Virus record (IMG/VR): IMGVR_UViG_2690316131_000019
Origin: a virus
Lineage: Duplodnaviria > Heunggongvirae > Uroviricota > Caudoviricetes
Direction: 5' to 3' (one strand)
DNA: 12,426 nucleotides
Of this stretch, positions 2,556 to 6,485 are shown in pieces. The notes under the pieces were generated by a model. It was given only the letters and a program-made list of their open reading frames with translations. It searched no databases and had not been told where the DNA came from. Position 1 is the stretch's first letter, and each line of letters begins with the position of its first letter. A program made the translations under genes and the position numbers.

Positions 2556-2987
2556 CTATTCAGGTATTTCAATTCCAAAACCATCTGCATCCCATGAGTT
2601 TTCACAGATGATGTAACCTAGTTCATTGAGCTTATTAAATGTTTTTTCAAAGATGATCTGGTAATCATTATCTGCAAGTGATTCCAGTTCAAGGTCATTA
2701 AGGTTTATATAAAAACTTGTATGTCCAAGTGTTATTTTCTTATTAATTTCATTAAAGGTTCTTTTGAAAATAATATTTGATATTTCATGTCGTGCATTGT
2801 TTGCAATGATTTTTGCTTCATAAGCAGAAATTACGTCATCTTCATGAATATCTTTCAGAAAGCTGGTGTCAAGACGTTGTACTATTTCAGCGTTCATTGA
2901 TCGCTTATTGGCTTTTGCAGAAATTTCTATTTTTTCTTTTACTTCGACGGGAAGTCTGATCCTTAGTTGTGGATCTTCTCTGCTCAT
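2556..2987 (-). CDS. mnt: Mnt-like ribbon-helix-helix repressor with an extended C-terminal domain
   Basis: N-terminal segment MSREDPQLRIRLPVEVKEKIEISAKANKRSMNAEIVQRL matches the Arc/Mnt RHH signature (recalled P22 Mnt: DDPHFNFRMPMEVREKLKFRAEANGRSMNSELLQIV). Preferred start is the ATG at 2987, preceded by GGTGAAG; the ORF track extends to 3017. Product is 143 aa, against about 82 aa for P22 Mnt. Confidence 0.65.
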   Translation of the reverse strand: MSREDPQLRIRLPVEVKEKIEISAKANKRSMNAEIVQRLDTSFLKDIHEDDVISAYEAKIIANNARHEISNIIFKRTFNEINKKITLGHTSFYINLNDLELESLADNDYQIIFEKTFNKLNELGYIICENSWDADGFGIEIPE

Positions 2988-3024
2988 GTTCTTCACCAAA
3001 TATTGAGTTACTTGCAATGATTGA

Positions 3025-3072
3025 AGTATGCCTCACCGTGTGCTTGACATCAATGACGCACGGTGTGACAAT
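3025..3072. promoter_or_regulatory. Divergent, overlapping sigma70 promoters (Pant-like on +, Pmnt-like on -) with CACGGTG/CACCGTG operator-like repeats
   Basis: Plus strand: TTGACA (3044-3049), 17-bp spacer, TGT-GACAAT extended -10 (3064-3072). Minus strand: TTGATG (rc of 3048-3053), 17 bp, CATACT (rc of 3025-3030). The 7-mer CACGGTG or its complement occurs at 3034-3040 (inverted), 3060-3066, 3083-3089 and 3288-3294. Confidence 0.45.
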
Positions 3073-3107
3073 TATTTTGCCCCACGGTGGGGCTAAGGAG
3101 ATATGAA

Positions 3108-3275
3108 ATGCAAAAAGCAAAAGAGATGTGTCAACGACGAGTTCGTTTTCCGGACGATGTGAAGTTAGCTATTGAAAGAAATGGCGAAAAAGAATGCCGA
3201 AAGTTCAATACAGAGATTATCTATCAGCTGAGGAAAGTGTATGGACTCACTGGTGAGAAGAATAGCGTGGCATAA
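3108..3275 (+). CDS. arc: Arc-like ribbon-helix-helix repressor
   Basis: 55-codon ORF with AGGAG (3096-3100) 7 nt before the ATG at 3108. Sequence QRRVRFPDDVKLAIERNGEKECRKFNTEIIYQLRKVYG has the Arc-type beta-strand/helix pattern (recalled P22 Arc: FNLRWPREVLDLVRKVAEENGRSVNSEIYQRV). Divergent from the mnt-like gene and directly upstream of the ant-like gene, as in P22 immI. Confidence 0.6.
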   Translation: MQKAKEMCQRRVRFPDDVKLAIERNGEKECRKFNTEIIYQLRKVYGLTGEKNSVA

Positions 3276-3347
3276 AACAGCGAAGCCCCACGGTGGCCAG
3301 ACCGTCAGGGCTTCAGTATCGTAAAACTACGTATAGGAATTAACGAC
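3272..3347 (-). ncRNA. sar: Candidate sar-like antisense RNA covering the ant ribosome-binding site
   Basis: Minus-strand promoter inside the 5' end of ant: TTGATA (rc of 3377-3382), 17-bp spacer, TATACT (rc of 3354-3359), predicting a start near 3347. Minus-strand terminator hairpin (stem 3282-3288 / 3308-3314) followed by GCUGUUUUAU in the arc-ant spacer. Predicted ~75-nt transcript is antisense to the ant SD (AGGAA 3335-3339); by recollection P22 sar is about 69 nt and similarly placed. Confidence 0.4.
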
Positions 3348-4286
3348 ATGACGAGTATAGCAACAGCAGTATCTACTATCAACGTGCCATTCCACGGCGC
3401 AGAGCTTTATGTTGTCAATCACAACGGCGAACCGTATACCCCAATGAAACCTATCGTTGAGGGAATGGGGCTAGACTGGAAATCTCAACATAAGAAGATT
3501 TCTCAACGCTTCTCGAAGGGTATGGTGGAAATCACCATACCTTCTGCCGGTGGGGGGCAAGCCATGATTTGTATGGCTTTACGAAAATTGGCAGCTTGGT
3601 TGAACAGCATCAGCCCTAACAAAGTCCGCCCTGAAATCCGCGACAAGGTAATCCAGTATCAGGAAGAGTGTGACGATGTGCTCTACGAGTACTGGACTAA
3701 AGGCCATGTGGTTAACCCACGCAAAGCTAAAAAGGCGTTGCCGGGTAAAATAACAACTGAACAGCAGGAAGCCATTAAACAACTCGTCATGAGTCGCGGT
3801 CAGTCTCTGCCAAAAGAAAAACAGGCTAAGGCGATGATCACCATGTGGTCGTCACTGAAATCTCATTTTGGCTGTTCGTACAAAGAAATTGGTGAAGATC
3901 AATTTGCCGAAGCGTTGTCTCTTGTTGCTCGGGTTCCGCTTGAAGGGGAGTATCTCCCTGCTGGATCTGCATCAGAGAATGATGAAGTGGCAGTCAAGAT
4001 GTTAGATGCGCTTCGTGAGGCAATTAAAACACAGACAAAATGTTATGGTTATCCATTGAAGCCAGGCTACCGCAGTCTGATTCATTCGCCGTCGGGTGTT
4101 CTCGGCCTGACGGAGAACTCACTGCTGATGAATCTGCTGAACCAGTTACAGGAAGACGGGCACGACGTATCGGGCGCGGCGGCGGAGCTGACCACCATGT
4201 TCTGCTACATCGTCGGTGTGAGCAAATGCCTGCGTGATATCCAGACGCACGCGGAGTACATCAACGACAAGGCTGGGTTCTTCTGA
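3348..4286 (+). CDS. ant: Phage antirepressor (P22 Ant-like: N-terminal Ant domain plus conserved C-terminal module)
   Basis: 312-codon ORF with AGGAA SD 8 nt upstream of the ATG. N-terminus (SIATAVSTINVPFHGAELYVVNHNGEPYTPMKPIVEGMGLDW) resembles P22 Ant-type antirepressor N-domains. Lies downstream of arc as in P22. The C-terminal ~78 aa are nearly identical to the C-terminus of the 5460..6170 product. Confidence 0.7.
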   Translation: MTSIATAVSTINVPFHGAELYVVNHNGEPYTPMKPIVEGMGLDWKSQHKKISQRFSKGMVEITIPSAGGGQAMICMALRKLAAWLNSISPNKVRPEIRDKVIQYQEECDDVLYEYWTKGHVVNPRKAKKALPGKITTEQQEAIKQLVMSRGQSLPKEKQAKAMITMWSSLKSHFGCSYKEIGEDQFAEALSLVARVPLEGEYLPAGSASENDEVAVKMLDALREAIKTQTKCYGYPLKPGYRSLIHSPSGVLGLTENSLLMNLLNQLQEDGHDVSGAAAELTTMFCYIVGVSKCLRDIQTHAEYINDKAGFF

Positions 4287-5443: not shown

Positions 5444-5698
5444 TCTGTGCCGCCGCCCGTCAGAAGAATCCTGCTTTGTCGTTGATGTACTCCGCGTGCG
5501 TCTGGATATCACGCAGGCATTTGCTCACACCGACGATGTAGCAGAACATGGTGGTCAGTTCCGCCGCCGCGCCCGATACGTCGTGCCCGTCGTCCTGTAA
5601 CTGGTTCAGCAGATTCATCAGCAGTGAGTTCTCCGTCAGGCCGAGAACACCAGACGGCGAGTGAATCAGGCTGCGGTAGCCGGGCTTCAGTGGGGCAC
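5444..5698. repeat. Right arm of the ~255-bp inverted repeat (3' end of the Bro-N antirepressor gene plus 16-18 bp past its stop)
   Basis: Reverse complement aligns with 4050..4304 at roughly 95% or better identity by eye. Confidence 0.85.
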
Positions 5699-6170
5699 TG
5701 TAGGTTTTGTTCTCTATCTTCATTGCCTGTATTACTGCTGACGCCGTGGCGTTGGCTACCTGGTCGGCAACCATCTTTATGCGTTCTTCCTGCGGGAGCG
5801 AGTTTTTAATGTAACTTCCGGTGCGGCGGATCTGAGGAAGAACCTCACCTGTAACCCATTTACGAAAGCGGTAGGGGATAGTGCCTGGTGTCACCGCATC
5901 GCGGCAGCGGAGGATCAGTGTGTAGAGGCCTGACTCGGAGATGATGTTGATCTCTTTTACTCGGCTGTCAAAAATTGCACGATGTTCATGCCCTATGTTG
6001 AACATAGACCTTTCATCATCATCCAGTTTTTCAAGTGATTGGGTGACGTTTTGGATACGCAGCGCACTACAAACGTCTTGGGCTACAAACCATGGTTGGC
6101 CATCGATAATGATGGAACGGATAGGGTTAACAGATTCAAATTTGAAGATGGCAGTTTGAGCATTAGCCAT
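5460..6170 (-). CDS. Antirepressor with Bro-N-type N-terminal domain and the shared Ant C-terminal module
   Basis: 236-codon ORF from the ATG at 6170, with GGAG 9 nt upstream; the ORF track extends to a GTG at 6185. N-terminus FKFESVNPIRSIIIDGQPWFVAQDVCSALRIQNVTQSLEKLDDDER is a typical Bro-N / phage antirepressor N-domain. The C-terminal 78 aa match the ant C-terminus. Confidence 0.7.
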   Translation of the reverse strand: MANAQTAIFKFESVNPIRSIIIDGQPWFVAQDVCSALRIQNVTQSLEKLDDDERSMFNIGHEHRAIFDSRVKEINIISESGLYTLILRCRDAVTPGTIPYRFRKWVTGEVLPQIRRTGSYIKNSLPQEERIKMVADQVANATASAVIQAMKIENKTYSAPLKPGYRSLIHSPSGVLGLTENSLLMNLLNQLQDDGHDVSGAAAELTTMFCYIVGVSKCLRDIQTHAEYINDKAGFF

Positions 6171-6321
6171 GGTGGTTATCTCCACTTAGTGATTTTAATC
6201 ACCACCGCAACGCCAATTACTGGTGGTGAACTGGACAAGGTTGGCGTACCGGCCTAAGTGGTACCGGCGTCCTTTCGGACCCCTGCCCAGCCCACCATAA
6301 TTCGGATATGGCTGTGCTTAA

Positions 6322-6354
6322 CGCATAAAAAAACCACGTCTGGCGTGGTATGCG
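6322..6354 (-). terminator. Rho-independent terminator for minus-strand transcription from the LexA-controlled gene
   Basis: On the minus strand: stem CCACG, loop CCAGA, stem CGTGG (6334-6348), followed by UUUUUUU (6327-6333). An outer CGCAT/ATGCG pairing (6322-6326 / 6350-6354) is also possible. Confidence 0.5.
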
Positions 6355-6485
6355 CCACTTAGTAACTCGGGACGCCAATCCCGGCACTGGATTTTGCCAG
6401 TACCCGATTACTATGGCACAAGAGGAGTGCGATGTAAATTTACCTCAAAGGTAAATATAAGCACTCCACTTGGTAATTGCAAACC

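Follow-up and report, generated by a model that had tools for sequence, protein, structure and literature searches.

The spacer between an arc-like gene and the antirepressor gene ant, in the stretch of DNA analysed here (12,426 nucleotides, referred to below as the window), carries on its minus strand what is very probably a homologue of the sar antisense RNA of phage P22. It would form part of a P22-type immI module (mnt-like, arc-like, sar, ant) in a TL-2011b-like E. coli prophage, and from the sequence comparisons described below we put the probability of this reading at roughly 0.85. The evidence supports describing the locus as a so far unannotated gene of the sar RNA family, borderline by its Rfam score, in a divergent immI module.

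The immI module and its prophage context

The region has the divergent mnt and arc-ant operons, the ribbon-helix-helix repressors and the P22_AR_N antirepressor of a P22-type immI module. Its protein-coding and plus-strand elements are as follows.

2987-2556, minus strand: mnt-like gene for a ribbon-helix-helix repressor, 143 aa (Pfam Arc domain, 1.2e-14)
3044-3072, plus strand: Pant, TTGACA / 17 bp / GACAAT, a strong promoter in the promoter scan
3080-3092, plus strand: Mnt-operator-like palindrome CCCCACGGTGGGG, just downstream of the Pant -10
3108-3275, plus strand: arc-like gene, 55 aa (33% identity to P22 Arc over 40 aa)
3335-3338, plus strand: ant Shine-Dalgarno sequence AGGA, 9 nt upstream of the ATG at 3348, the predicted target of sar
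3348-4286, plus strand: ant, antirepressor, 312 aa (Pfam P22_AR_N, 7.6e-45; PHROG anti-repressor Ant)

The Ant protein is 38% identical to P22 Ant. The repressors are just 32-33% identical to their P22 counterparts, the mnt-like protein (32%) having 143 residues against 83 for P22 Mnt. For the arc-like protein, searches of Pfam and PHROG gave no match; pairwise comparison with P22 Arc gives E = 4e-5, and the equivalent gene is annotated as an Arc-like repressor in NC_019445. The palindrome has the same core, CCACGGTGG, as the annotated P22 mnt operator, and is a putative operator. The arc-ant spacer is 72 bp long.

The module is flanked by a virion internal-protein gene on one side and a tail gene on the other, and the P22 'ant moron' is found at the corresponding position of the late operon, adjoining the tailspike gene. 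P22 itself is a Lederbergvirus, whereas the phage here is an E. coli prophage resembling TL-2011b. Escherichia phage TL-2011b matches bases 2900-3482 at 98% identity, and several STEC chromosomes contain an exact copy of a 191-nt core (3230-3420). No sar gene is annotated in the TL-2011b phage record or in the five annotated E. coli chromosome regions inspected, and a literature search on TL-2011b returned nothing about sar.

The predicted sar promoter

The minus-strand promoter scan identified a promoter, Psar, within the beginning of ant.

3382-3377, minus strand: Psar -35 hexamer TTGATA, 5/6 consensus, opposite ant codons 10-12
3362-3354, minus strand: Psar extended -10 TGcTATACT, opposite ant codons 3-5

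The two hexamers, TTGATA and TATACT (3359-3354), are separated by a 17-bp spacer and match the consensus at 10 of 12 positions, with the TG of the extended -10 at 3362-3361. The whole promoter is embedded antisense within codons 3-12 of ant, whose ATG is at 3348, and the predicted start at 3347 is 7 nt downstream of the -10. We infer that Psar is a putative sigma-70 promoter with an extended -10, starting at about 3347 and convergent with Pant.

A match of 10/12 is not in itself rare in this region, where two such sites were found and 2.8 are expected in shuffled sequence, and the significance of Psar therefore comes from its position. Its score at the P22-homologous position is reached by just 0.06% of random positions in related loci. 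The -10 is the same hexamer, in the same ant codons (3-4), as in the annotated Psar of P22, where it likewise has a TG upstream, the extended element covering codons 3-5. The -35 differs. P22 Psar, which has been defined experimentally, has GTGTTA (3/6) at the equivalent place, weaker than the TTGATA (5/6) of the window, which is found identically in TL-2011b, in CUS-3 and in several IMG/VR loci.

The position was also compared across 35 distinct sar-like sequences, all located upstream of antirepressor-type genes and collected from a scan of IMG/VR for the lower-stem pattern GAAGCCCC...AGGGCTTC, together with E. coli and phage records. A promoter score of at least 8.5 is found at the homologous position in 28 of these 35 loci, compared with 2.5% of random positions. 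An antisense -10 of the form TGnTAnnnT is present in most of them, usually 6-7 nt before the base opposite ATG-1, despite the differing N-termini and domains of the Ant proteins. The version in the window, which CUS-3 and TL-2011b also have, is one of those nearest to consensus among the related loci. It is worth adding that the AGT-ATA codons of ant were considered as a sign of selection for TATACT; this argument is weak, as in this phage 25% of the Ile codons are ATA and 20% of the Ser codons are AGT.

The predicted RNA and its terminator

The RNA predicted to start from Psar has the following parts.

3347, minus strand: predicted sar 5' end (G), the base directly 5' of the ant AUG, in register with P22
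3347-3274, minus strand: predicted sar RNA, about 71-74 nt (about 73), from the Rfam match and the fold
3347-3318, minus strand: 5' stem-loop, nt 1-30 of the RNA, with outer stem GUCGU/ACGAU, by folding
3339-3335, minus strand: anti-Shine-Dalgarno UUCCU, in the apical part of the 5' stem-loop
3315-3281, minus strand: 3' terminator hairpin, 14 bp with one bulged G, by folding
3277-3274, minus strand: terminator U-tract UUUU, overlapping the arc stop codon TAA (3273-3275)

The position of the 5' end was assigned by register with the annotated 5' end of P22 sar (1591 in the P22 locus, where the ant ATG is at 1592). The predicted RNA is complementary along its whole length to the arc-ant spacer and the ant ribosome-binding site, and folds with an energy of -24.1 kcal/mol (z = -2.65). 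The terminator has a lower stem GAAGCCCU/GGGGCUUC, of which the last pair is U·G, with an additional closing U·G pair at the base; an upper stem ACGGU/ACCGU with the loop CUGGCC; and the single bulged G between the two. It is followed by GCUGUUUU. With its bulge, and with 4 nt between the stem and the U4, it is the weakest terminator of the comparative set. In the centroid structure the 5' hairpin is marginal, with just its five outer pairs left.

A simple terminator scan gave no minus-strand terminator at the sar locus, because the stem carries a bulge. The same simple scan also misses the annotated sar terminator and Psar of P22, so that its negative result is uninformative. On the plus strand, a T-run after the hairpin was looked for and none was found. 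The terminator is therefore one-directional, and sense transcription from Pant should read into ant. We infer that arc and ant are co-transcribed, and that the hairpin is no terminator for the sense strand.

The initial annotation had proposed a near-consensus antisense promoter in the first codons of ant, a minus-strand terminator in the arc-ant spacer and an RNA of about 75 nt complementary to the ant Shine-Dalgarno sequence. All three are recovered here: the promoter by the scan (TTGATA, 17 bp, TATACT, 10/12), the terminator as the bulged 14-bp hairpin and its U4, and the RNA as a predicted transcript from 3347 to about 3275, roughly 73 nt, which spans the Shine-Dalgarno sequence.

Rfam assignment and comparison with P22 and CUS-3

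The Rfam sar family (RF00262) matches the minus strand of the window at 3346-3279, scoring 44.8 bits where the gathering score is 43 (E = 1.4e-6), and the match is full length, covering model positions 1-68 of 68. The margin is 1.8 bits, and a close relative that differs by two substitutions in the terminator (locus L126) falls below the threshold. At this threshold, RF00262 detects 4 of the 13 sar-like loci tested, L126 being among those missed.

The RNA would lie antisense in the arc-ant intercistronic region, where it would cover the ant ribosome-binding site and begin one base ahead of the ATG. It agrees with P22 sar in position, in strand, in beginning one base ahead of the ant AUG and ending over the arc stop codon, in its two stem-loops, and in its complementarity to the ant Shine-Dalgarno sequence. 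The statement that the locus mirrors the P22 sar arrangement is thus well founded: promoter, start, two hairpins and 3' end are at equivalent positions, RF00262 matches above its threshold, and the flanking genes encode Mnt-, Arc- and Ant-like homologues, as they do in P22. The further statement that the sequences differ calls for correction. Overall identity to P22 sar is about 65%, and the -10 and the lower terminator stem (GAAGCCC/GGGCUUC) are identical in the two. These identities indicate a homologue of P22 sar, rather than a mere analogue.

The differences from P22 sar are mainly in the hairpins. The 5' hairpin of the window has a sequence of the CUS-3 type. In the terminator, the upper stem and loop are ACGGU-CUGGCC-ACCGU with the bulged G, where P22 has a CUGU/GCAG stem; the two upper stems differ by compensatory changes, so that pairing is kept. 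The RNA as a whole is predicted to be less stable than that of P22 (-24.1 against -29.5 kcal/mol).

CUS-3, a phage of E. coli K1 (CP000711), is closer in part. It has almost the same sequence in the 5' half of the RNA, in the promoter (TTGATA, 17 bp, TGcTATACT) and at the start of ant, and identity over the whole RNA is 80%. However, the terminator apex of CUS-3 is of the P22 type, a further ORF separates its arc gene from the hairpin, and its arc and operator set is not that of the window.

Conservation and covariation

When 30 of the comparative sequences were folded singly, all 30 gave the two-hairpin shape; 29 of these are complete, and one (L050) is cut at its 5' end. A motif complementary to the Shine-Dalgarno sequence is found at nt 6-15, within the 5' hairpin, in the 29 complete folded sequences. 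An alignment of 30 sequences using MAFFT and RNAalifold recovered the terminator alone. The 5' hairpin was missed because the 5' hairpins were misaligned, and an alignment guided by a covariance model was used instead. In this alignment, which is fitted to the model and so leans to the modelled structure, and in which many of the 35 loci are close relatives, 95.4% of the pair cells are standard pairs. Changes on both sides are seen in 10 of the 20 pairs. Values as high as these were reached in 0 of 500 shuffles, and slid controls pair at about 40%. The outer-stem pairs of the 5' hairpin (helices 1-2) covary across relatives. The seven lower pairs of the terminator are invariant by ascertainment, the loci having been selected by GAAGCCCC...AGGGCTTC.

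Could the conserved element be a relic, or act only in the sense strand, with the antisense promoter silent or irrelevant? In the sense-strand versions it would be an element for processing or stability of the arc-ant mRNA, or a conserved joint for mosaic recombination. The sense strand does fold into the complementary hairpin, leaving the AGGA of the ant Shine-Dalgarno sequence unpaired. A role as a joint would agree with the mosaic SCU-387, in which the base of the hairpin is the exact junction between a window-type arc and terminator and a 5' half and ant of the P22 type; with the 'boundary sequences' annotated at this place in the CUS-3 record; and, as would a sense-strand role, with the unchanged lower stem in modules that have unrelated arc and ant genes. 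These readings leave unexplained, however, the extended -10, whose distance from the ant AUG stays constant despite differing Ant N-termini, the U-tract on the antisense side alone, and the covariation in a 5' hairpin that starts exactly at the predicted start. Taken together, we consider the relic and sense-only readings very unlikely, and note that roles in the sense and antisense strands are not mutually exclusive.

The terminator and the Mnt-operator-like palindrome

The 12-mer GCCCCACGGTGG of the Mnt-operator-like palindrome (3079-3090) recurs in the sar terminator (3285-3296), which raises the question of whether the Mnt- or Arc-like repressor also uses the terminator DNA as an auxiliary operator, binding it through the CACGGTG at 3289-3295. 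About 0.09 matches of the 11-mer are expected in the window, and all four CAC[CG]GTG motifs in the 12.4 kb lie within 3034-3295, the other three being at 3034, 3059 and 3083. Other sar loci share at most 9 nt between terminator and upstream region. If the site were real, this fourth repressor site would link protein repression of Pant to the sar locus, whether through looping, a roadblock to read-through from arc into ant, or modulation of sar termination, and one 33-bp element would be RNA terminator, antisense target and operator.

The comparison with relatives, however, argues against this. Close relatives with the same operator have GCCCAACGGTGG in the terminator, and in IMG/VR the terminator allele is C in 11 contigs and A in 9. 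Since GCCCC is part of the conserved stem, the identity of the two 12-mers comes down to this single C/A polymorphism. Furthermore, the apical ACGGTGGCCAGACCGT also occurs in modules with an unrelated arc and with operators that have no CACSGTG. The match is probably coincidental, and an operator in the sar terminator is, in our view, very unlikely.

Proposed mechanism

In P22, sar represses the translation of ant (PMC12197685, PMC7968456, PMC2629481), and reviews of P22 give the mechanism as base pairing with the ant ribosome-binding site (PMC12197685, PMC7968456). The arrangement in the window suggests the same sequence of events. Psar would initiate antisense transcription at about 3347, and the intrinsic terminator in the arc-ant spacer would end the RNA at about 3275. 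The product, about 73 nt long, would fold into two stem-loops, the 5' one of which would present the anti-Shine-Dalgarno sequence. By homology with P22, this RNA would pair with the arc-ant mRNA made from Pant, over the ant ribosome-binding site, and so block translation of Ant. It would act as a post-transcriptional brake, on top of the transcriptional repression that the Arc- and Mnt-like proteins would exert at Pant.

It is also conceivable that transcriptional interference, by collision of polymerases or by promoter occlusion between Psar and Pant, outweighs the pairing of the RNA with the ribosome-binding site. Pant (3044-3072) and Psar (3382-3354) are convergent and about 268 bp apart, and Psar here, with 10/12 matches plus the TG, is nearer to consensus than the GTGTTA/TATACT of P22. 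In vitro work on P22 from 1987 reportedly described interference between Pant and Psar. Interference may contribute here. As the dominant effect it seems extremely unlikely: the RNA is predicted to end after about 73 nt, far short of Pant, so that few polymerases would travel towards Pant; the conserved fold presenting the anti-Shine-Dalgarno sequence points to a function at the level of RNA; and it is pairing with the ant ribosome-binding site that the P22 reviews name as the mechanism (PMC12197685, PMC7968456). Antisense pairing by a sar-type RNA is the preferred mechanism.

Two other small phage RNAs offer a useful comparison. The c4 RNA of P1 and P7 (RF01695) is, like sar, a small phage antisense RNA that blocks translation of an antirepressor at its ribosome-binding site. 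However, c4 is processed from the transcript of its own target and pairs in trans through short loop sequences, whereas sar is a fully complementary cis-antisense RNA with its own convergent promoter, and the two have no similarity in sequence or structure. The OOP RNA of lambdoid phages, which is cis-antisense to cII, resembles sar in being short (about 77 nt), constitutive and ended by a terminator, and in tuning a regulator of the lysis-lysogeny decision. It differs in overlapping the 3' end of its target and in acting through RNase III cleavage, as opposed to occlusion of the ribosome-binding site, and it is not homologous to sar.

The window also contains a C4 homologue, at 6302-6219 on the minus strand, upstream of a second antirepressor gene. 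There are therefore two antirepressor genes in the window, each with a different known antisense RNA upstream: sar in one case, and C4 with isrK in the other.

Extent of the sar family

The downstream genes in the comparative set encode proteins of several kinds. Among 28 of these proteins, Pfam identified P22_AR_N in 11, Bro-N in 7, ORF6N in 2, and Rha and KilA-N in 1 each. A scan of a genome collection for GAAGCCCTG...GGGGCTTC...TTT, which was not a taxonomic survey, gave at least 120 loci, mostly generic terminators. The first 100 of these were searched with the covariance model and eight matches were inspected. Among the matches listed, only two resembled true sar-type loci: one in Stutzerimonas nitrititolerans (L233), upstream of an Ant homologue, and one in Comamonas aquatilis (L222), before an ORF resembling the KilA-N class. 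These two examples are anecdotal.

The sar cassette appears to be portable, with a range from Enterobacteria to Stutzerimonas and Comamonas, and to precede structurally unrelated antirepressors (P22_AR_N, Bro-N, KilA-N, ORF6N and Rha). This extension of the family is more likely than an operator role for the sar terminator. Most sar copies of the wider family also appear to fall under the Rfam threshold. The results suggest that the sar family is broader than this threshold captures, and that it serves antirepressors of several folds.

Implications

The mechanism is already known from P22 sar, and the present locus extends known biology modestly. Its significance is mainly one of annotation: TL-2011b-like prophages, in Shiga-toxigenic and other E. 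coli, very probably have the whole of a P22-type immI switch, with the antisense RNA included. The presence in the window of two pairs of antirepressor and antisense RNA bears on the induction, or cross-induction, of such prophages.

Mosaic structure and repeated motifs in the immI module

Comparison of positions 3108-3420 of the window with 1379-1700 of L125, the corresponding locus of E. coli SCU-387, shows that L125 has a mosaic immI module, in which arc and the terminator are of the window type and the 5' half of sar and ant are of the P22 type. One type gives way to the other precisely at the terminator hairpin's 3' base (AGGGCTTC), and the conserved hairpin stem looks like a recombination joint.

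All four window copies of CAC[CG]GTG lie inside 262 bp (3034-3295), the expectation for the entire 12.4 kb being 1.1.

CAC[CG]GTG motifs
3034, 3059, 3083: around Pant, the predicted ant promoter; spacing 24-25 bp
3289: in the sar terminator

The Mnt-like and Arc-like repressors probably have the cores of their operators in the three motifs around Pant. An exact 12-mer, GCCCCACGGTGG, is found both in a Mnt-operator-like palindrome (3079-3090) and in the sar terminator (3285-3296). This match is probably coincidental, because the fourth C is replaced by A in relatives and the apex of the terminator is also found alongside unrelated operators.

The Mnt-like repressor itself (2556-2987, -) has 143 aa, whereas P22 Mnt has 83 aa. 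The pairwise alignment with P22 Mnt covers its first 86 residues only, leaving the C-terminal 57 residues without a counterpart in that protein.

Annotation of the ant start

In L126 (E. coli OkiPb01700), the RefSeq start of ant is a later ATG, at 1655, and the -10 region of the predicted sar promoter Psar is therefore left out of the annotated gene. The homologous ant start ATGACGAGTATAGC (about 1619) is intact, some 36 nt upstream of this ATG.

Sar-like elements with other antirepressor classes

Antirepressor genes of domain classes other than P22_AR_N, these being Bro-N, KilA-N, ORF6N and Rha, are also preceded by elements that resemble sar in having two hairpins and an antisense -10 of the form TGnTAnnnT.

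Loci with such elements
IMG/VR loci: L019, L030, L043, L047, L050, L063, L098, L104
Genome loci: L233, L222

Among the matches listed, the two genome loci take these elements to Stutzerimonas and Comamonas as well. At its gathering score, the Rfam sar model gave no match in 9 of the 13 such loci tested.

A second antirepressor module

A YafO-family toxin gene lies between the two antirepressor modules of the window, and TL-2011b, a related Escherichia phage, is annotated with the same layout.

5185-4613 (-): YafO-family toxin gene (Pfam YafO_toxin, 9.2e-6)
5312-5133 (-): small ORF, upstream of and overlapping the YafO-family gene

The second module (5460-6403, -) is predicted to be under antisense-RNA control.

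6403-6327 (-): isrK RNA (Rfam match, 63.5 bits)
6302-6219 (-): C4 RNA (Rfam match, 66 bits)
6185-5460 (-): antirepressor-like ORF of 241 aa, immediately downstream of isrK and C4

The TL-2011b homologue of this ORF is annotated as Bro-N domain-containing, and PHROGs 450 and 15539 are common to its C-terminal part and the sar-controlled Ant. Given isrK, C4 and an antirepressor-like ORF beside the sar-controlled Ant, the predicted P22-type and P1/Gifsy-type antirepressor switches are, as judged from sequence, side by side in one prophage.
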